DNA from: a virus
DNA: 11,745 nucleotides
UHGV virus genome: UHGV-1592390
Reading direction: 5' to 3' (one strand)
The number at the start of each line of letters is the position of its first letter. Position 1 is the stretch's first letter. The notes below the pieces were generated by a model that was not told the origin of the DNA, searched no databases, and saw only the letters and a list, made by a program, of their open reading frames with translations. The position numbers were made by a program, and so were the translations under genes. Positions 1-11,745 of the stretch are shown piece after piece.

Positions 1-74
1 TGATAGAAACAGAAGCCACTGGAGCACCTCAAAAACACCATCATACACTAAATCAGTAAGTTGGCAGCATCACC
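1..74 (-). mobile_element. IS1 terminal fragment (IRL / insA-upstream end); element body lies upstream of the window
   Basis: Bases 1..74 are the reverse complement of the canonical first ~74 bp of IS1 (GGTGATGCTGCCAACTTACTGAT... terminal inverted repeat), ending exactly at 74 (...gcagcatcacc). Recognised from memory of the IS1 sequence; insA/insB would be on the minus strand. Confidence 0.9.
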
Positions 75-83
75 GGAGAGTTC

Positions 84-332
84 TTAATCAGCATTCAGGA
101 GCAATGCGTTATCTATGATGATCTGCTCCCATTCCTCGAATGCCCGATCGCGGACGCCCTGGGGAACGCTGTTAGTTTTGAAATCGACGACCGTCCGCCA
201 TTTTCCGTCCGGACGGTACATGCGCAGAGCTTTACTTCCCCCTTCCCTGCGCACCTCAACGTTATGCTTGTCAGCAAACTCTTGTAATGCTCGTAGCGTC
301 CCATGCTTTACTGTGTAGTATCGCTTTTTCAA
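84..332 (-). CDS. lxc: Small 82-aa protein, likely P1 Lxc/Bof-like modulator of C1 repressor
   Basis: Complete 82-codon ORF. TTG start at 332-330 overlaps the stop of the upstream ORF (TTGA), with a GGAGAG Shine-Dalgarno 5 nt upstream. Size and position (third gene after darB) match my recollection of P1 lxc/bof; the protein sequence itself was not recognised. Stop lies 9 bp from the IS1 end. Confidence 0.55.
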   Translation of the reverse strand: MKKRYYTVKHGTLRALQEFADKHNVEVRREGGSKALRMYRPDGKWRTVVDFKTNSVPQGVRDRAFEEWEQIIIDNALLLNAD

Positions 333-769
333 GTTTTCTCTCCAGCCTGTGCTAAGGCTTCAACTTCCAAATCGTAAGACTCAAACTCATAGTCCTGGTC
401 GTCAACCTCTTCAGGCACTGGCAGTAAATGCCAGGCTGAGTATATCTGACCATTATCAAAACGCTCCTGGCTGTAGAGCGTCGCGGCTATGAGTGTCAGC
501 GCCGGGCGGTCATAACGGTAAATTTTGCGAACGTCACGGTCAACGAGACGACCGAAATTACCATAACCGCGCTCCAGTAATAATTTTTTAATTTCCGGCC
601 AGTATGGGCCATAGCTGCGGTACAGGCGGGGATTTTTCAGTAATCGCCCGCGTAGCCCTGACAGGAAGAAATCAACGTATTCGTCTTCTGTCTTTCCTAA
701 CAATGCCGTACGCAGTACCGCCTCAAGATATGTTTTATTCGGTTTTATTGTATCAGATAGTGTGGCCAT
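329..769 (-). CDS. ulx: 146-aa protein between darB and lxc, probably P1 Ulx-like (Dar system accessory)
   Basis: Complete ORF with ATG at 769-767 and TGA stop overlapping the lxc start. Co-directional and tightly packed with darB, 33 bp downstream of its stop. No recognisable catalytic motif; assignment is by position only. No obvious Shine-Dalgarno; a GC hairpin sits just upstream. Confidence 0.55.
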   Translation of the reverse strand: MATLSDTIKPNKTYLEAVLRTALLGKTEDEYVDFFLSGLRGRLLKNPRLYRSYGPYWPEIKKLLLERGYGNFGRLVDRDVRKIYRYDRPALTLIAATLYSQERFDNGQIYSAWHLLPVPEEVDDQDYEFESYDLEVEALAQAGEKT

Positions 770-802: not shown

Positions 803-3800
803 TTATGCGTATTGTTGGATGACGGCCAGAACGTCCGCCACGTTGTGTTTTGTCTCGATAATCCACCAGTTACCCGGGAAATCGCTGTTCTTCGCCTTCG
901 CTGGCAGCCAGCGAGCGCCGAATTTCGCCTTGATTGCGTCTTTCGCACGGAAAAGAACGCCTTTCATGCCTGAGGCTTCCTGAAGCCCAAATACCTCGCC
1001 AGCGGCGAATTTTGGTGCGTACATCATCTTCAGGTCGGCGGTGGATACGCGATAATTCAGACCAAGAGACTGAGCTATGCTGGTGGCATCACCCTGTATT
1101 GATGATAACTCTTCTTGTTTCTCGTTTCTGGCGGCAATTTCTTCCTCCGTGATGTTGCCAAGGGCCAGGTTTATCCGATCAGCGTCGGCCTGTTTCTCTT
1201 CATCGGTGCGTCCGGCAAGAACCGTGTTAACTCTCTGCAATATCTCCACATGATTCTTGCGCATGCTGAGCAATTCCGGCGTAACCTCGTTAAGATCCAC
1301 CAGCCCAAGGATGGCAAGGTCGGAAAACATTGATACCAGGTTGTAGGTCATGCGATAGCTGAGTTGACCATAGGCTGATGGCAACTTCACCGCATCCATT
1401 TGATAGGCATCCATAAATTTAGAGCCGTCGTTTACGACATCCGCAATTGCCGGTGTGATTTTTCCTGTGGTGGCGGCCTCCCTGATTGCTGTTACCCACG
1501 ATTGAGTCAGCGCGGCGACTGCATGATTCAGATTGGCTTTCCGTTCTGCTGCAATGCGCGCACTTGCTGCGTCCATTGCCTGCTTGATCTCGTCTTTATT
1601 GCTGTAAATGCCAATGGTGCCAAACTGTGCTGTGGTGATCTCATAATCTGACGCCCGGAACTCATTGGTACCGAAAATGGCATTGGTGACTTCAAGTTCA
1701 GAATCCCCGTTACGAGTAGACCCCTGGCTTGTTTTTTCCGGCATTCTGGCGATCGCATCCGCTATTTTCTCCTGAATTGCTTCAGGGGATAGCGTATCTC
1801 CGTATGACGCGATTACATCGCCATAATTGGAGCCAAACAATTCAACCAGGAATGTTTCTGCCGAACGGATCTGGCGGTTATTCCCTTCCGACATCATACC
1901 AAGCACCCATTTTGCAATTGACGACTTCAGCGCGCCGTCACGGCGATCCGGGTAAACCGCATGCTTCAGTGGGTCCGTATAGGTGCCAACAAAATCAATG
2001 CTATAGCCTGACTCTGTAGTCTGAACGCCGTATGAGTCAGTGATTTTGATCATGCCGCGCTGCTGGAAACGGTAGAAATCGTCACAGGAAATGATGTCGT
2101 TAATCCCGGCGATGGAGACGCCACCACTGATTTTCTGCATAACAGCATCTTCATCGGGAGTTACATCCACCTGTTTATCCAGCGTCTTCACATCCCAGTT
2201 ACCCGATTTGGTGCCTTTGAAGGTAAAGATGATCTCCACGTCTGCGCGCTGGCTGTCGAAGTCCAGCGACTTAATGCGAACGATATCACCGGCACAATCG
2301 TAGTATTGGCCTACACGCCATGAGCGATCGCCGATAACAAGGAACTCACTCGCATGGTTAACCAGGTCAGGATCAACATCCAGAATGCCTTTATTTATTG
2401 CATCCTCCACCAGCGGGCGCAGGCGTTTGATATCCGTCGCGGCCTTCTGAGTACGGTTCAATAATTTCTCATAGCGGGAGATGGCTTGAGTGATATTAGC
2501 CTTGCGCTGAATGGCGCTTTTCAACGACGCGCGATACTGTGCTAACAACATACGGTCTGTGTGATGGACACTCCCCCAGCGGGCCTTCCAGTCTGCGTTA
2601 TCCGCTGCCTTGGCCATTGCCGCCTGTTTGAATTTAGCTACCTCGGCGGTGGTCTTTTCAAGTTCCGCTTTGCTTCGCTCTAATTCAGCGGTAAGTACCT
2701 CCACATCCTCGCCAGCTGCGTGCTGCGCCTTGATGTAGTTCTGAAGGTCGATAGTAGCCTGTTCTTTCTGGCGAGCGCGTTGCGCGGCTTTCGCCTTATC
2801 CATTTGAACCTGCATCATTGCCAGACGTTCGCCATCATCCTTAGCGGTATACATCTGCATTTCGATCATATCGTTGGCGTCGGCGTTCTCCATTTCAGAC
2901 TTATCTGAGCGGAGGATATCGGAGATCCAGCCTGCTTTACGCTTCAGCGTCTTCAGTCGGTATTCATCGAAAGAACCCTTGCCGCAGTAGTAGTGAACGC
3001 GAACGCTTGCACGGTTGGAACCAACTCGGGCACCGCGACCGTTACGCTGTGCGATACTGGCTGGTGTCCATGGCAACGTCAGATGATGGATGTCAGTTGT
3101 TCCTCGATGCAGGTTGATACCCACCTCTGCCTTTTTGTTGCAGATGATGATCGGAGTCCGGCCCTCCTGGAAGTCGGCAGCAATCTTTTCCAGCCCACCC
3201 AGCGACATTTCATTTTGCTGCGCGATATAGGCGTCATACAGAGCCATTTGCTCGTTGTATTTCGCTATCTGTGCATCTGTTGGTTCATCCGGTAGCTCTT
3301 TCGGTGGTTTAACCGCTTTCAGTTTCTTACCGGTTTTACCTGCCTCGGCAACCGTCTGAGCATTCAGGATCCCCACCTTTGAAGGTTCAAGGTTAAGAGC
3401 ATTGCAGATAATGCGCTTGAGCTTCTGGTGTTGCGTTTTTTCATCGGTGAAGATGATTTGCTTACCTTCCGGGAAAAACTCCTTCAGCGTGGCAATCAGC
3501 TTCGCGTATTTGGGCGTAACGGGGTGAGTTACGGTCTGTTCGTCAATGCCAAACTTGGCCAGGCGCTTATTCACTTCCTGCTCAAATGCTTCCGGTACCT
3601 GCAACTGAATAAACTCGCCCTTATCTATCAGGGAGTATTGCGATTGCTGCGTGATCGAATCATCACTGTCGTCGTCTTCGCTGGTGGCTTGTTTAGGCAA
3701 ACTGTCCGCCAGCTGCTGCACCGCATCGGCGTACTCCGGCAGGAAACGATAGGTGATCCTGCGATAGTACAGGTCCATGTCAGTACATACGCGGTCCATA

Positions 3801-6800
3801 TCCCTGATTATTGAGAAGATCGGACGGGCTTTCTCGTGCTCAATCACGCCGTCTTCATTGACCGAGGTCGTTACGCCATTGTTGGCTTTGGCTGCCGCTT
3901 CCGCCTGCTGACGCAATTCTTCATACGCCGCCAGTTGTTCTTCCGTAAGTGGTGCATCCTGCTGGTGTTCGTCCAGTTCCGGGATCTCCACGGTATCCTT
4001 AACGTCTTCCGCCGTTTTAAGCGTTGTCCAGCGATGGAATATGCCGCGCAGCGCATCAAGGTTTTCAAAGCCCACCAGCGCCATTTTTTCTTCAACTTCA
4101 CCGCTGATTTTCTGTACCGTTTCCAGCCTGGTCTTGCCGAAGAATTTTACGAAGTCATCAGGACTGTAGATCCCCATCTTCTGCCAGTATTCCTTCGGCA
4201 GAACATGAGAAAGCATGTTGTATGCATCGATCGGGGTGTTAACGACTGGCGTTGCAGTCAGGAGAACCGGTCCGCGCCCACCATTCTTTTTCATCAGGTA
4301 CGCGTTTTTAATTGCCATATCCCGCGCCGATTGCGCCACCGCGCTGGTGGGCAGATAGGCCAGTTGTGACGCTTCGCGACCATTTTTATAGCTATTGCGG
4401 TAGTTGTGACCTTCGTCAGCGATCACACTATCGAAGCCCATATCCTCAAAGTACGGATACTTCTCTGCTTTTTCGGTGCCGGTATCTGAATACTCCGACA
4501 ATACCCGGCGACGCGCGGCCTCTTTGCGGTGGGAGTCGGAGTCCATTGCGCTGGCTACGCGCCCGGCGGCAACGAAGTCATAAAGCATATCCTGTGCATG
4601 CTCATCTACGGTGTCATCACGTAGCGGAATGCGGGCGTATTGTTCTTTGGTAAACACGACTGCACGGTAATTTGAGTGCGGGATCGCGTTCATCCGCGCC
4701 GTGATAGTGGCTTCATCTGCCAGCTTAAGAGCATCGCGCATAACTGGAGTGCCATCAGTACCAAGAACAGGTTTACCGTTCTCATCGAGCACCGGCACCT
4801 GGCGAATCTGATCGCCATCCATCAGCACATCAAGACCGACGAACAGGTAGTTACTGAATGCCTCTTCACTCAGGAATTCTTTTGCTTCGTAATACCAGTT
4901 TTCCAGCACTGATTTAGGCACTACATACGCAGTACGGGTGGAGCGACCGTTCTCATAGTTGAACGCCTCAAGCGCCAGCGCGGTCGTGGTTTTACCCAGC
5001 CCGGTGCCGAAGCCCAGGATGCCGCGCCCATCTTCGGACAGTCGGCGCACCTCGCTATTCTGGTAATCAAATGGCTGGCGCTTACCGCTTAATCCCTTCA
5101 ACCCAAGCGGATCGCCAGAGTGTTCATACGGGATATTGCTATTGAACACATCGTTGTATTTGGCAACCAGCTCATCGTAGCGATCGTGCGTCTTGATCCA
5201 CTTATTGAACTGGTCCTCAAGCAGTGCCATCTGCTCGCGGTAGCCGTTCGCCGTCGCGCTATCTTTGCCACCGATACGCGCACCATTGAGATACTTTTCC
5301 AGCTGTGCCGGGAACCCGGTCGCGTTTTCACCTGATTTACGGTCCCACTCGTAGCGGATCTCGCCTGTTTCTTTATCCTTGCGCTGGACGACACCGTATC
5401 GGTGCCCGACGAACAGACCATCACCACCGTGATAGGTGTCAGAAACCATTTCGTCGCCTTCCAGCTGCACTGACTGCACATAGCGAAGATCCGGATAGCC
5501 GTTTTCCTGCAAAAATTCCAGAATGACGGAACGGTCGAACCAACGGCTATTGAGCTTAAAGCGGATATTCTCTGCTGGCGTCTTGATGCGCTTCTCTTCG
5601 ATCGCTGCCAGCTGATTAAGGACGTTGTTCTTTACTGGACCGTCGGGGAGTGTGGCAAGGAATTCCTGTTTTGGTACCACTATCTCGTTAATGTCGCCGC
5701 TGGTGGCGCGGGCGAACGGAACAATCCCGCCATACGGTGAAACCGCAATGCCAGGGGTGCTGGCCAATAAATTAAGCAACTCGTCATCACTGGCTGGCAG
5801 TTCGCCGGTAAACGCAAGGCGGAAATCATCGAGCTGGATTGGATCGCGAGTGAGATCACTGTAGAGATAACGCAGGGTGTCCTGATAGCTGGTGGAGTCA
5901 TAACTGGCGCTGGAATCATGCGTAACCAGTTTTCCTGTCAGCTCGTCAGAAATAGTGCCATCCAGCTTAATTGCACCACGGAAAGCAAACCAGGCGCGCG
6001 CACCGCTCCCCGATAATTTCGCTATCGGACCGCGACCGGGGTTACCAAAACGGTCAATCTCTGCCTGCAAACGGGATACCAGAGAAAGGCGCTGCTGTTC
6101 GATTTGTTCAGCACTATGCCCGGCGGCCTTCATGTCCTGATATTCAATTAACATCCGGCCAATCATCGCCCCGCGATACAAGCGTTCACGGTATTTTTCA
6201 GGCTGGCTGTTAATCCAGTCCACCAGCTGCACCATATCGTCGCTGATTGATGTGGTGTACTTATCGCGGACATTTGCCATCTGGGTAAATGTCATACCGA
6301 GACGGCCTTCTGTTGTAGTCAGGTTACGCTGAAGAGCCTCCCAGCTGTCCGCGCCATAACTGGCAACATCAATCTTCAGCTCCTTCCCTGCATCAGCTTC
6401 AATCCAGCGACCACCAGCATATTTTTGCCATACGCCATTAATCAGGCGCATTTCCCCTTCATCAACAACGTCTGCGGTCGGTGACGGTTCAGCCATATTG
6501 AGCAAAGACCAGTCGATACGACTTTCGAAACGATGAATCAGCTTCGCTTTAAGAGCCTGGTTATCAATCTGCCCGTCGGCACGAACCTCAATACGCCCCT
6601 GGAATCCCTTCTCCTGAGTGCCATGAACAAACCGGCGGCCGTCCTTTTCAAACCACTTGCCAGAAATAAACGTTGGCCAAAGCACATTTGCCGATTCAAG
6701 AGTGCCTTCATCCACCAGGGGGATTTTCTCAGCCATCTCCGCCGGATGTTTGCGCATCAGCACCACGTCAACGACCGTACTGGTCCCGTTTGCGTCAAAA

Positions 6801-7570
6801 GTACCGGTAGGCAAGCGGTGGGCACCAAGAAATTCAGCTTTCCGTGATAGGCGCAGGCGTAACCGCTTCATGTTTGAACCTGAAACAATGGACGGCGGCA
6901 CAATCACGCACATGAATCCGCCTGGCTTTATCTTGTCCAGCATGCGGAGCATGAAGTAAGAACCCATGTCCGTTTCTTCTGCGTAAGGCTTATCGATGTT
7001 GCGTGTGTTATCACGACCACCGAACGGAACGTTACCCACAACATGGTCGAATGAATCGTTAGGCGTGCTTACAGCCAGCTGTTCGAACGGGGAAATCTGT
7101 ACGCTGTCTTCCGGGTGTAACAGCTGGTTTATACGACCGGAAACACTGCTGATCTCAGTCGCAGTCATCACCGTACCAACCGGTTTTGTCTCATTAAAAA
7201 CGCCGGTGCCCGCCGATGGTTCCAGAGTGTTACCTACGTCCGCGCCGTAGAGCTTCATGATCTCCCAGACACCTTCAGCGATCGGCTTTGGTGTGTAATA
7301 TTCGGAGACGGACCCGCCAATGCCGCCTTCACCGGTGTACCCAGCCAGGATCTGGCGCTGTTCATCTGTCAGTGTCGCGCCGTCCACCAGCGAATTAAGC
7401 AAATCTATCGCCTTCTGATTCGCCTCCCGGCGCAGTCGGTCATAGCTTTTGCCTTCCACCTTTTCCACGCCGTATTTAATCGGCGCTCGGTGAGATGTTA
7501 TTGCCCTAATGTATTTCAATATTTCGCTGACACTTGAACAGCGAAACACCCCCATAGATAGCTTGTTCAT
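803..7570 (-). CDS. darB: Giant (2255 aa) N6-adenine methyltransferase / SF2 helicase fusion; P1 DarB-like antirestriction protein
   Basis: Uninterrupted 6768-nt ORF with ATG at 7570 and an AAGGA Shine-Dalgarno 6 nt upstream. Gamma-class amino-methyltransferase motifs read from the translation: YYTP (aa 91-94), motif I LEPSAGTGVF (aa 116-125, nt ~7196-7225), motif IV NVPF (aa 180-183, nt 7022-7033). Helicase motifs: Walker A GFGTGLGKTT (aa 853-862, nt 4985-5014), DEGH (aa 1052-1055, nt 4406-4417), motif III LLTATP (aa 1103-1108), motif VI QRNGRGAR (aa 1508-1515, nt 3026-3049). Length and architecture match my recollection of P1 DarB. The C-terminal ~700 aa has a coiled-coil-like stretch and no recognisable motif. 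Confidence 0.85.
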   Translation of the reverse strand: MNKLSMGVFRCSSVSEILKYIRAITSHRAPIKYGVEKVEGKSYDRLRREANQKAIDLLNSLVDGATLTDEQRQILAGYTGEGGIGGSVSEYYTPKPIAEGVWEIMKLYGADVGNTLEPSAGTGVFNETKPVGTVMTATEISSVSGRINQLLHPEDSVQISPFEQLAVSTPNDSFDHVVGNVPFGGRDNTRNIDKPYAEETDMGSYFMLRMLDKIKPGGFMCVIVPPSIVSGSNMKRLRLRLSRKAEFLGAHRLPTGTFDANGTSTVVDVVLMRKHPAEMAEKIPLVDEGTLESANVLWPTFISGKWFEKDGRRFVHGTQEKGFQGRIEVRADGQIDNQALKAKLIHRFESRIDWSLLNMAEPSPTADVVDEGEMRLINGVWQKYAGGRWIEADAGKELKIDVASYGADSWEALQRNLTTTEGRLGMTFTQMANVRDKYTTSISDDMVQLVDWINSQPEKYRERLYRGAMIGRMLIEYQDMKAAGHSAEQIEQQRLSLVSRLQAEIDRFGNPGRGPIAKLSGSGARAWFAFRGAIKLDGTISDELTGKLVTHDSSASYDSTSYQDTLRYLYSDLTRDPIQLDDFRLAFTGELPASDDELLNLLASTPGIAVSPYGGIVPFARATSGDINEIVVPKQEFLATLPDGPVKNNVLNQLAAIEEKRIKTPAENIRFKLNSRWFDRSVILEFLQENGYPDLRYVQSVQLEGDEMVSDTYHGGDGLFVGHRYGVVQRKDKETGEIRYEWDRKSGENATGFPAQLEKYLNGARIGGKDSATANGYREQMALLEDQFNKWIKTHDRYDELVAKYNDVFNSNIPYEHSGDPLGLKGLSGKRQPFDYQNSEVRRLSEDGRGILGFGTGLGKTTTALALEAFNYENGRSTRTAYVVPKSVLENWYYEAKEFLSEEAFSNYLFVGLDVLMDGDQIRQVPVLDENGKPVLGTDGTPVMRDALKLADEATITARMNAIPHSNYRAVVFTKEQYARIPLRDDTVDEHAQDMLYDFVAAGRVASAMDSDSHRKEAARRRVLSEYSDTGTEKAEKYPYFEDMGFDSVIADEGHNYRNSYKNGREASQLAYLPTSAVAQSARDMAIKNAYLMKKNGGRGPVLLTATPVVNTPIDAYNMLSHVLPKEYWQKMGIYSPDDFVKFFGKTRLETVQKISGEVEEKMALVGFENLDALRGIFHRWTTLKTAEDVKDTVEIPELDEHQQDAPLTEEQLAAYEELRQQAEAAAKANNGVTTSVNEDGVIEHEKARPIFSIIRDMDRVCTDMDLYYRRITYRFLPEYADAVQQLADSLPKQATSEDDDSDDSITQQSQYSLIDKGEFIQLQVPEAFEQEVNKRLAKFGIDEQTVTHPVTPKYAKLIATLKEFFPEGKQIIFTDEKTQHQKLKRIICNALNLEPSKVGILNAQTVAEAGKTGKKLKAVKPPKELPDEPTDAQIAKYNEQMALYDAYIAQQNEMSLGGLEKIAADFQEGRTPIIICNKKAEVGINLHRGTTDIHHLTLPWTPASIAQRNGRGARVGSNRASVRVHYYCGKGSFDEYRLKTLKRKAGWISDILRSDKSEMENADANDMIEMQMYTAKDDGERLAMMQVQMDKAKAAQRARQKEQATIDLQNYIKAQHAAGEDVEVLTAELERSKAELEKTTAEVAKFKQAAMAKAADNADWKARWGSVHHTDRMLLAQYRASLKSAIQRKANITQAISRYEKLLNRTQKAATDIKRLRPLVEDAINKGILDVDPDLVNHASEFLVIGDRSWRVGQYYDCAGDIVRIKSLDFDSQRADVEIIFTFKGTKSGNWDVKTLDKQVDVTPDEDAVMQKISGGVSIAGINDIISCDDFYRFQQRGMIKITDSYGVQTTESGYSIDFVGTYTDPLKHAVYPDRRDGALKSSIAKWVLGMMSEGNNRQIRSAETFLVELFGSNYGDVIASYGDTLSPEAIQEKIADAIARMPEKTSQGSTRNGDSELEVTNAIFGTNEFRASDYEITTAQFGTIGIYSNKDEIKQAMDAASARIAAERKANLNHAVAALTQSWVTAIREAATTGKITPAIADVVNDGSKFMDAYQMDAVKLPSAYGQLSYRMTYNLVSMFSDLAILGLVDLNEVTPELLSMRKNHVEILQRVNTVLAGRTDEEKQADADRINLALGNITEEEIAARNEKQEELSSIQGDATSIAQSLGLNYRVSTADLKMMYAPKFAAGEVFGLQEASGMKGVLFRAKDAIKAKFGARWLPAKAKNSDFPGNWWIIETKHNVADVLAVIQQYA

Positions 7571-10367
<2,797 letters not shown>

Positions 10368-10371
10368 CCAC

Positions 10372-10405
10372 CAAAAATAACCCCGGCGGCTGCCGGGGTT
10401 CTCGT
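10372..10405. terminator. Bidirectional intrinsic terminator between convergent pro (+) and lyz/orf84 (-) transcripts
   Basis: Perfect 7-bp GC stem CCCCGGC (10381-10387), loop GGCT, GCCGGGG (10392-10398). On the minus strand it is followed by TTATTTTTGG (strong U-tract); on the plus strand it is preceded by an A-tract and followed by the weaker TTCTCGTT. Lies 14 nt after the pro stop and 14 nt after the orf84 stop. Confidence 0.7.
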
Positions 10406-10411
10406 TAACTA

Positions 10412-10666
10412 TTATCGCCTTCGCCTGCGTGCCATATATTTGCGCACCGCGCGGCGTGGACAATCTGAAGCGGTTTCTTTCTGCTGCATCAATCTTGCAG
10501 CCATGCTCAAAAATGTCAGGCACAGCCGAAGCCCGGCATACAATAGCGGTTCCAGTGGCCACGTCTCATTGAGCACATATACCGCCATGAAAATCGAGTC
10601 AAAAACTATCGCCGCCAGCGATAACTTCATTGTCGAAAGTCGGCGGAGCTGCCGGAGTTTATTCAT
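10412..10666 (-). CDS. Hypothetical 84-aa small membrane protein, translationally coupled to lyz; holin-like features
   Basis: ATG at 10666-10664 overlaps the lyz stop (ATGAATAA arrangement). One clear hydrophobic segment (LSLAAIVFDSIFMAVYVL), a second weaker one, and a strongly basic C-terminus (RRAVRKYMARRRRR). Ends 14 nt before the terminator hairpin. Codon usage looks ordinary. No homology could be checked. Confidence 0.4.
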   Translation of the reverse strand: MNKLRQLRRLSTMKLSLAAIVFDSIFMAVYVLNETWPLEPLLYAGLRLCLTFLSMAARLMQQKETASDCPRRAVRKYMARRRRR

Positions 10667-11216
10667 TGACCAGTCCCGTCAGGCAAAGCTGGCGTTCTTT
10701 TTCACGGCGAATCTTTAAACCTCGCAGGGGCACGCCGTTACTGTTCACGAAATCAGGGAGATGGTTACACATATTCACCCATTCCCCTTTCTGCGCCCAC
10801 TTGTGGATGGACGTTTCTACTCGCATGCCTCGCGCTTTGCTGTAGTAGGTCCGTAAGCTATTGCATCCCATATTGAATGCCGCGCTTGTCATTGCACTGA
10901 AGGCATTATCGGGCATGTCTTTGCCCCGGAAGTGCTGATTAATACAGCGTTCAGCGATCAGGATATTCTTTTCCCAATCAGCGGCGATTTGCTGGTCTGT
11001 TTTTCGCACACCCGGCGTTACCCCGTGTGTATTACCGATCCCGTCAGTCCATACCCCTGCCGGGCACATGTATGGATCACGTCGGCAACCTTCAGCGTTA
11101 CCAATCAGCTCAAGCCCCGCCTGGTTGGTTCGCACATTGCCATTACCCATCACGATGGTAATCATCACCGCGATAGCGCAAATTGCACCGCCTCCTGCGG
11201 CTGTTTTTCCCTTCAT
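10659..11216 (-). CDS. lyz: SAR (signal-arrest-release) endolysin, P1 Lyz, 185 aa
   Basis: From ATG 11216-11214 (GAGGT Shine-Dalgarno 5 nt upstream) the translation begins MKGKTAAGGGAICAIAVMITIVMGNGNVRTN..., with the N-terminal SAR transmembrane segment containing Cys13, then E42 and the Cys44/Cys51 pair (NAEGCRRDPYMC) characteristic of P1 Lyz as I recall it. The ORF track's longer 218-aa version adds an in-frame 33-aa extension with no ribosome-binding site. Confidence 0.93.
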   Translation of the reverse strand: MKGKTAAGGGAICAIAVMITIVMGNGNVRTNQAGLELIGNAEGCRRDPYMCPAGVWTDGIGNTHGVTPGVRKTDQQIAADWEKNILIAERCINQHFRGKDMPDNAFSAMTSAAFNMGCNSLRTYYSKARGMRVETSIHKWAQKGEWVNMCNHLPDFVNSNGVPLRGLKIRREKERQLCLTGLVNE

Positions 11217-11299
11217 AAAGACCTCATAAGCGAATTTTTTACGCTCCAGGACAAACACCCATTCACAGCCAATACCGACTGACTCGATCCCTTTAGAAG

Positions 11300-11326
11300 A
11301 CACAGGATAATGCAAATCACTTGTTA
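11300..11326 (-). promoter_or_regulatory. Candidate late promoter for lyz (shared box plus -10-like hexamer)
   Basis: On the lyz-sense strand: TAACAAGTGA (complement of 11317-11326), 4 nt, then CATTAT (complement of 11307-11312). Same decamer and geometry as upstream of prt. Predicted start near 11300, about 84 nt upstream of the lyz ATG. Confidence 0.35.
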
Positions 11327-11366
11327 GCTACGTTTCAAAGATATACATTATTGCTCTAATTATTTT
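11321..11366 (+). promoter_or_regulatory. Candidate sigma70 promoter for ssb overlapped by a C1-repressor operator-like site
   Basis: -35 TTGTTA (11321-11326), 17-bp spacer, -10 TACATT (11344-11349). Immediately downstream, ATTGCTCTAATTATTTT (11350-11366) matches the P1 C1 operator consensus ATTGCTCTAATAAATTT as I recall it at 15 of 17 positions. ssb GTG start follows at 11386. Confidence 0.5.
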
Positions 11367-11385
11367 ATTTTATTAGGTAAGAAAA

Positions 11386-11670
11386 GTGGCACAACGCGGT
11401 GTAAACAAAGTCATCCTGATTGGTACCCTGGGGCAAGACCCGGAGATCAGGTATATACCAAATGGCGGAGCAGTCGGAAGACTCAGCATCGCAACGAATG
11501 AATCATGGCGCGACAAGCAAACGGGCCAACAGAAAGAGCAAACAGAATGGCATAAAGTCGTTTTGTTCGGAAAACTTGCTGAAATTGCGAGTGAGTATTT
11601 ACGAAAAGGTTCTCAGGTCTACATCGAAGGGAAACTTAAAACCCGTAAGTGGACAGATGACGCCGGTGTA
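11386..11670 (+). pseudogene. ssb: Single-stranded DNA-binding protein gene, 5' portion only (codons 1-95), disrupted by IS1
   Basis: GTG start at 11386 with an AGGTAAG Shine-Dalgarno-like sequence upstream. Translation [95 protein letters not shown] aligns with the N-terminal OB-fold of E. coli SSB ([31 protein letters not shown]...KWTDQSG). After codon 95 the frame runs into IS1 sequence and is open to the window edge; the rest of the OB-fold, the Gly-rich linker and the acidic C-terminal tail are missing. Not in the ORF track because no stop occurs in-window. Confidence 0.85.
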
Positions 11671-11745
11671 GGTAATGACTCCAACTTATTGATAGTGTTT
11701 TATGTTCAGATAATGCCCGATGACTTTGTCATGCAGCTCCACCGA
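11671..11745 (-). mobile_element. IS1 terminal fragment (IRR / insB-distal end); element body continues downstream of the window
   Basis: GGTAATGACTCCAACTTATTGATAGTG... from 11671 is the IS1 right inverted repeat and adjacent sequence, read as the reverse complement of the canonical orientation. Same orientation as the IS1 end at 1..74. Confidence 0.9.

Follow-up and report, generated by a model that had tools for sequence, protein, structure and literature searches.

P1-like phage-plasmids carry two hot spots of variation and cargo, RD-1 (res-mod, P1 3,469–9,749) and RD-2 (isaA-IS1-isaB, P1 21,540–24,243) (PMC6906374, PMC9603915). In the P1 annotation, lxc (82 aa) adjoins ulx and darB, and the intact ssb has 162 codons (NC_005856, 21051–21539; AF125376.2), its 162-aa product having a complete OB fold, a linker and the acidic tip DFDDDIPF. 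The resident IS1 of P1 lies in RD-2, to the right of ssb and 1,087 bp past it, is flanked by a clean 9-bp duplication, TGCCCTCTG, and has a base change that marks its “mutant” inverted repeat (IR). IS1 elements generate adjacent deletions. Expression of SSB-P1 was reportedly weak in a 1999 study, and the P1 and E. coli SSB proteins are said to be interchangeable. C-terminally truncated variants of E. coli SSB, both proteolytic cores and tip deletions, retain the whole OB domain (about residues 1–112) and still form tetramers. A genome-wide CRISPRi study counts P1 ssb among the non-essential genes, its knock-down giving an efficiency of plating of 0.57 (PMC10695390). Finally, mobile IS-flanked mrk cassettes have been described as variations of the composite transposon Tn6011 (PMC3402527).

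The stretch of DNA analysed here, “the window,” is 11,745 nucleotides long and is 100% identical to the whole of a low-coverage short-read metagenome contig of about 4.9x (ENA ERZ507907 NODE_1310_length_11745_cov_4.93), to which it was matched via the exact DarB sequence. In it, the ssb of a P1-like phage-plasmid gives way to an IS1 after its 95th codon. We consider it very probable that this is an IS1-truncated ssb pseudogene at the RD-2 cargo border of such an element, and that the loss of its function is tolerated. The features of the window are as follows:

1–74, minus strand: terminal 74 nt of an IS1 (IRL end, ...GGCAGCATCACC), 100% identical to the IRL end of the P1 IS1 (piece L001, 4955–5028)
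84–332, minus strand: lxc (82 aa), the first conserved gene of the P1 block after RD-1 (ORF list, P1 annotation, gene calls)
329–769, minus strand: ulx (146 aa; ORF list, gene calls, P1 annotation)
803–7570, minus strand: darB (2255 aa), antirestriction methylase/helicase; the annotation in relatives is N-6 DNA methylase
7646–9355, plus strand: prt (portal, 569 aa; ORF list, P1 annotation, gene calls)
9348–10367, plus strand: pro (head processing, 339 aa; P1 annotation, gene calls)
10659–11216, minus strand: lyz (endolysin, 185 aa; Pfam Phage_lysozyme)
11321–11349, plus strand: counterpart of the sigma-70 promoter P2ssb (TTGTTA ... TACATT), placed by alignment to the P1 annotation, hexamers unchanged
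11350–11366, plus strand: counterpart of the C1 operator Ossb/Op21, ATTGCTCTAATTATTTT, placed by alignment to the P1 annotation
11386–11670, plus strand: ssb′, codons 1–95 of a P1-type ssb with a GTG start, a truncated pseudogene
11671–11745, minus strand: first 75 nt of an IS1 from its IRR end (GGTAATGACTCCAACTTATTGAT...), with the last insB codons and the insB stop at 11686–11688

Between the two IS1 termini the gene order is lxc, ulx, darB, prt, pro, lydE, lydD, lyz and ssb′. This lxc-to-ssb synteny and the high identity of the block (98.96% to P1 over 8700–11671, and 98.4% to an IncY plasmid over 88–10564) place the window on a P1-like (Punavirus, IncY) backbone. Judged by gene order and P1 coordinates, it is exactly the conserved block that separates RD-1 and RD-2: the left IS1 terminus lies 9 nt past the lxc stop, exactly at the RD-1 (res-mod) border, and the RD-2 border is here shifted 203 bp into ssb. 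We picture the source as a P1-like (Punavirus/IncY) phage-plasmid that would carry IS1 copies at both borders of the lxc–ssb block, with the assembly stopping in each, and in which IS1 would stand at the right border in place of everything from ssb codon 96 on.

The breakpoint itself is clear. Translation of the frame from the GTG at 11386 gives 120 codons without a stop as far as 11745, the first 95 residues of which align with residues 1–95 of P1 Ssb at 95/95 identity. By megablast against phage records, 11200–11671 matches P1, P7 and other P1-like phages at 98.3–98.9% identity, P1 homology ending at window position 11671, which is P1 coordinate 21336 (98.9% identity); 11671–11745, in turn, is 100% identical to IS1 copies of several unrelated phages, the right end of the IS1 (GGTAATGACTCC...) running from 11671 to the window edge. 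In the alignments the break falls after GTA (codon 95), followed by the IS1 right end GGTAATGACTCCAACTTATTGATAG..., and its position leaves a one-base ambiguity, as the G at 11671 suits ssb and IS1 alike. Codons 96–120 are IS1-derived and antisense to the 3′ end of insB (insB stop complement at 11686–11688), giving the fusion an IS1-derived tail of 25 residues within the window; since P1 ssb has 162 codons and 95 are kept, 67 are missing. The terminal inverted repeat of IS1 (GGTAATGAC.CCAACTTATTGAT / GGTGATGCTGCCAACTTACTGAT) is present at both ends, with the IRR end starting at 11671 and the IRL end finishing at 74, and both ends are 100% identical to annotated IS1 copies, although the IS1 sequence within the window amounts to just 74 nt and 75 nt, including the last insB codons on the minus strand (11686–11745). 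An earlier note, made from the letters of the window, had described an ssb that is intact for 95 codons and then continues into IS1, and this is confirmed: the junction at 11670/11671 is real.

The same note had described the ssb–IS1 frame as open. There is no stop inside the window, so that much of the description stands; the frame is open, however, because the window stops there. In NZ_CP061756.1, where a full IS1 follows an identical junction (piece L002), the sequence continues CACCGA TTT TGA, and a second IS1 copy of the same plasmid (piece L004) reads the same, CACCGATTTTGA. The frame would therefore stop two codons past the window edge (TTT TGA), for an IS1-encoded extension of 26 codons antisense to insB and a chimera of 121 aa. 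A public protein of 121 aa with the same architecture, MDY8219853.1, is named “single-stranded DNA-binding protein [Escherichia coli]”. As a general caution, frames that are open to the end of a contig, and fusion frames found there, are usually assembly breaks in repeats.

In one piece, the junction occurs in two of 5,426 complete E. coli genomes: on NZ_CP061756.1, a 116-kb IncY plasmid of strain 873.10 (beef trimmings, Uruguay), and on NZ_CP034659.1, a 454-kb IncHI1B/IncY plasmid. RefSeq annotates both ssb copies as pseudogenes (IEC99_RS24975 and EKH78_RS24240, respectively), in both cases as [quoted passage not shown]. The junction is also present on one JGI metagenome contig (OGYE01000896.1), and the exact 41-nt junction is absent from the IMG/VR viral contigs and the GTDB representative genomes. 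In a collection of 15 billion proteins, the 121-aa chimera is encoded, in another allele, by at least 55 contigs and is listed in 60 blocks, many of them from human-gut metagenome assemblies, next to partial versions cut at contig ends, one of which is from Salmonella. With the same junction in public records and RefSeq annotating it as a pseudogene, the truncation is already catalogued; it is an ordinary example of a gene broken where P1-like plasmids are known to take up cargo.

IEC99_RS24975, EKH78_RS24240 and MDY8219853.1 share with the window the breakpoint nucleotide, the IS1 orientation and the IS1-derived tail (the 25 residues, followed by F). They differ from it in allele, having D20, K48, I59 and I64 where the window has E20, Q48, V59 and L64; over the 95 codons the two alleles differ at 8 nucleotides, the last of them at 11595, and in 4 amino acids, and the backbone of the junction-bearing relatives is diverged from the window by about 1.8%. 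The window's own fusion, as 120 or 121 aa and with either V or M first, has no exact match in the 15-billion-protein collection, and its combination of allele and junction has no second instance among the records searched. Given the other allele of the relatives and this unique combination, common descent of the junction followed by recombination upstream is an assumption.

The same facts invite a technical explanation, in which the assembly would be a chimera that joins an intact-ssb plasmid with the window's allele to an ssb′::IS1-mrk plasmid through a shared stretch of 75 nt. The coverage of 4.9x, the unique combination of allele and junction, and the identity of 11596–11670 in both alleles, as long as a typical k-mer, all fit such an event. 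However, an assembly graph holding both continuations would normally break at 11670 rather than 75 nt into the IS1, and the junction is real in independent complete plasmids, so we regard a chimeric assembly as quite unlikely and an IS1-truncated pseudogene as the better account of the contig.

The nearest relative of the backbone is ENA ERZ27258573 k141_17367 (L011), whose DarB is identical to that of the window and whose nucleotide sequence agrees with it to 99.84%; this contig is uninformative on the junction, ending inside ssb at window position 11486, short of the breakpoint. The two junction-bearing plasmids, NZ_CP061756.1 (L008, L009) and NZ_CP034659.1 (L022), are heavily remodelled P1-like elements with a frameshift in the portal gene and a ref that is in two pieces. 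Their cargo includes arsRDABC, a locus of heat resistance (clpK, yfdX, kefB-GI and others), type I restriction-modification systems and many copies of IS26, IS30 and IS1, and in both an EAL-domain gene and an HTH gene fill RD-1 beside lxc. A link between these lxc-side genes and the mrkJ-like EAL gene that follows mrkF in another record (L013) was considered and rejected, the identity being only 27%.

Since the window ends after 75 nt of IS1, the relatives have to serve as the guide both to what adjoins the IS1 and to what became of the ssb 3′ half. There, a full 768-bp IS1 stands at the junction, followed by mrkABCDF and then by a second, inverted IS1; in a 28-kb metagenome contig the cargo additionally includes an EAL gene and a GerE/LuxR gene ahead of the second IS1. 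The joint between the IS1 IRL end and the region upstream of mrkA is common to 98 plasmid records, with about 97.5% identity for most among the matches listed; they include NC_013503.1, NC_019256.1 (Shigella sp. LN126) and CP017222, the last being the IncX1 mrk plasmid pFAM21845_2 (PMC5514686). By analogy with these relatives, the junction IS1 of the window would form the left arm of a Tn6011-like cassette that is flanked by IS1 and carries mrkABCDF (type 3 fimbriae). In the junction IS1 of NZ_CP061756.1 (L002, 6855–6878) the inner (IRL) end carries three changes, AATAATTAGGTTGGCAGCATCACC as compared with the canonical AATCAGTAAGTTGGCAGCATCACC, which may affect the ability of that IS1 to transpose.

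At the other end of the window, the IS1 terminus has the same orientation as that at the junction, so an 11.6-kb lxc–ssb′ block lies between direct IS1 termini. As both contig ends are IS1 termini, the assembler probably broke in the repeat on each side, which is how de Bruijn graph assemblers behave at repeats. The bracketed block could be a composite-transposon-like unit, or both termini could be one collapsed IS1 node in the assembly graph. The left IS1–lxc junction was not found in one piece in complete E. coli genomes; the nearest arrangement is that of NZ_CP010179.1, where a copy of the IS1SD family lies about 29 nt away from this position. Unlike the window, NZ_CP061756.1 and NZ_CP034659.1 are without an IS1 at the lxc side; L011 also lacks one there and runs on into other AT-rich sequence. 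Window positions 1–74 are 100% identical to IS1 copies in NZ_CP061756.1 as well, and the match extends to positions 1–77 (74 nt of IS1 plus GGA) at the IS1–mrkF joint of that plasmid (L004, 14864–14940). This 77-mer would be a weak hint of a mrk cassette in the same sample, as a vertex shared in the graph if k = 77; the three extra nucleotides may, however, match by chance.

The earlier note had called ssb “interrupted,” which would place its 3′ half beyond the IS1. This does not agree with NZ_CP061756.1, which has the identical junction: no ssb 3′ sequence exists anywhere in the whole plasmid by blastn and tblastn, and the idea that the 3′ half lies elsewhere on it was rejected on the same searches. 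A 9-bp target duplication is likewise absent from NZ_CP061756.1, the outer flanks GCCGGTGTA and GCCCTAGTC being different. With neither a 3′ half nor a duplication, the event in that plasmid is a truncation or replacement.

If the window instead held a simple and recent insertion of IS1, one would expect the ssb 3′ half and a 9-bp duplication past a single 768-bp IS1, and P1-like backbone from there on. The window ends 75 nt into the IS1, its allele differs from those of every mrk-linked relative, so that an independent event is conceivable, and the IS1 of P1 itself is a simple insertion with a duplication. Nevertheless, it is improbable that an independent insertion would hit this very nucleotide with the orientation unchanged, the fully searched NZ_CP061756.1 lacks the 3′ half, and the left 77-mer, which equals the IS1–mrkF joint, weakly hints at a mrk cassette in the sample. 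We therefore judge a simple insertion to be unlikely. In the reading that we prefer, the truncation would have arisen by IS1-mediated deletion or replacement, or by IS1–IS1 recombination; a possible path would be the insertion of a composite element followed by IS1–IS1 recombination or deletion, or alternatively a one-ended event.

The orientation of the window IS1, which is that of the IS1 of P1, suggests one further origin: a resident P1-type IS1 could have transposed intramolecularly into ssb, deleting the 3′ end of ssb and isaA, so that isaB-hxr would come next. A Salmonella plasmid whose IS1 lies about 140 bp past ssb and points the same way would also be in keeping with such an adjacent deletion. 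The inner flank in the relatives with the same junction, however, is mrkA and not isaB, and the IS1 end in the window lacks the base change that marks the “mutant” IR of P1. An adjacent deletion of this kind is thus very unlikely.

What the truncation costs the protein can be read from the domain matches, and the expectation of the earlier note, that part of the OB fold and the acidic tail would be lost, is borne out. The Pfam SSB profile PF00436 matches residues 6–99 of the chimera (E = 6.5e-36), covering profile positions 1–93 of 104, compared with 1–100 in intact P1 Ssb, and the acidic tip (...DFDDDIPF) of P1 Ssb is absent from the ssb–IS1 fusion. The E. coli SSB structures 1sru and 1eyg match ssb′ with E values of about 1e-49; the likeness stops at residue 95–97, while the crystallised cores comprise 113–116 residues. 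The OB-fold domain is thus incomplete, lacking its last strand, and the linker is missing too. Because the last OB strand and the C-terminal partner-binding tip are gone, the 121-aa chimera is, from its sequence, most likely inactive. A single-sequence AlphaFold2 model of the fusion is unreliable (pLDDT 45.9).

The signals for expression, namely the start codon, the Shine-Dalgarno region and both hexamers of P2ssb, are conserved. A consensus promoter/terminator scan of 11150–11745 found nothing, P2ssb being missed because the promoter is too weak. The operator ATTGCTCTAATTATTTT differs from P1 Ossb, ATTGCTCTAATTAATTT, in one base (T for A at position 14), so the C1-operator-like site is not strictly “intact,” as it had been called; from what we take to be the C1 operator consensus, ATTGCTCTAATAAATTT, it differs at two bases. 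Nor does the step from an intact operator to expression follow, as a working C1 operator would instead mean repression in the lysogen. The operator variant ATTGCTCTAATTATTTT is also found in L011; P1 and the plasmids of the mrk lineage have ...TTAATTT at this site, and a Salmonella plasmid has ...TCATTTT. Two further differences from P1 lie in this region: a one-base T insertion at 11235, in the lyz–ssb intergenic sequence, and an A for T at 11383, which changes the predicted P1ssb −10 hexamer from TAAGAT to TAAGAA and lies in the Shine-Dalgarno spacer.

The conserved expression signals could also be taken to mean that the 121-aa SSB(1–95)–IS1 chimera is made, in lytic growth or on induction, and is active, for example by poisoning host SSB tetramers as one of their subunits, or by serving as a mini-SSB that lacks the tip. 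The residues W41, W55, H56, F61 and W89 are kept in ssb′, and we take their E. coli counterparts to serve in ssDNA binding or tetramer contacts; at the place of the last OB strand, the IS1-derived tail (LLIVFYVQI) is hydrophobic and prone to form a strand; and the identical chimera is widespread among P1-like plasmids of gut E. coli. Against this, the Pfam match ends short of the full profile (position 93 of 104), the AlphaFold model cannot be relied on, and the weak promoter lies next to a C1 operator. The spread of the chimera, moreover, looks clonal (identical protein, backbone and cargo) and so does not count as evidence of selection, and its host plasmids are decaying prophages with the frameshifted portal gene and split ref described above. 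If it were true, host replication or the SOS response would be altered, the IS1 tail standing in for the missing OB strand, but we consider an active chimera extremely unlikely, and a dominant-negative fusion against host SSB tetramers is speculation.

For a truncated pseudogene, the consequence would be that the phage loses its own SSB and that the host SSB substitutes for it. The reliance on host SSB that the earlier note had proposed is plausible, because P1 ssb scored as non-essential under CRISPRi (PMC10695390), and the loss of ssb would be tolerated because the host protein can take its place. Nevertheless, the P1-type ssb is essentially full length in 497 of the 501 PLSDB records that hold the gene, which suggests that selection normally keeps it; the tolerance may therefore be that of a prophage in decay. 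The loss of ssb is a rare event, seen in elements that are laden with cargo and degenerating.

The biological weight of the finding is small: this is one more pseudogene made by an insertion sequence at the cargo edge of a P1-like phage-plasmid, where the RD-2 cargo border encroaches on a gene that about 99% of such plasmids otherwise keep intact. Its practical use lies in the junction, which marks a P1-like plasmid lineage common in human-gut E. coli and carrying a type 3 fimbriae (mrk) biofilm cassette.

Compared with the systems described at the outset, the window shares with P1 ssb the GTG start, the P2ssb hexamers, the position of Op21/Ossb and the divergent lyz, and differs in that codons 96–162 are replaced by IS1. 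Its IS1 has the same orientation and lies at the same hot spot, to the right of ssb, as the resident IS1 of P1, but inside ssb rather than 1,087 bp past an intact gene with a 9-bp duplication and a mutant IR base. The Salmonella plasmid pSZL38.1 (NZ_CP085986.1; L012, 4458–5225) has a same-orientation IS1 about 140 bp past an intact ssb, with a tail-fibre gene directly after it, so that the IS1 positions at the RD-2 border form a series: 1,087 bp past ssb in P1, about 140 bp past it in pSZL38.1 and inside it in the window. The junction IS1 of the relatives has the same IS1–mrkA joint as the Tn6011-like mrkABCDF cassette of the IncX1 plasmids pOLA52, pMAS2027 and pLN126_33; the cassette of the relatives, however, sits on a P1-like phage-plasmid, not on IncX, and is seen with no flanking target duplication. 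Like the truncated variants of E. coli SSB, ssb′ has lost the acidic partner-binding tip and kept the aromatic residues expected to bind ssDNA; unlike them, it ends at residue 95, within the OB fold, and has 26 unrelated residues added.
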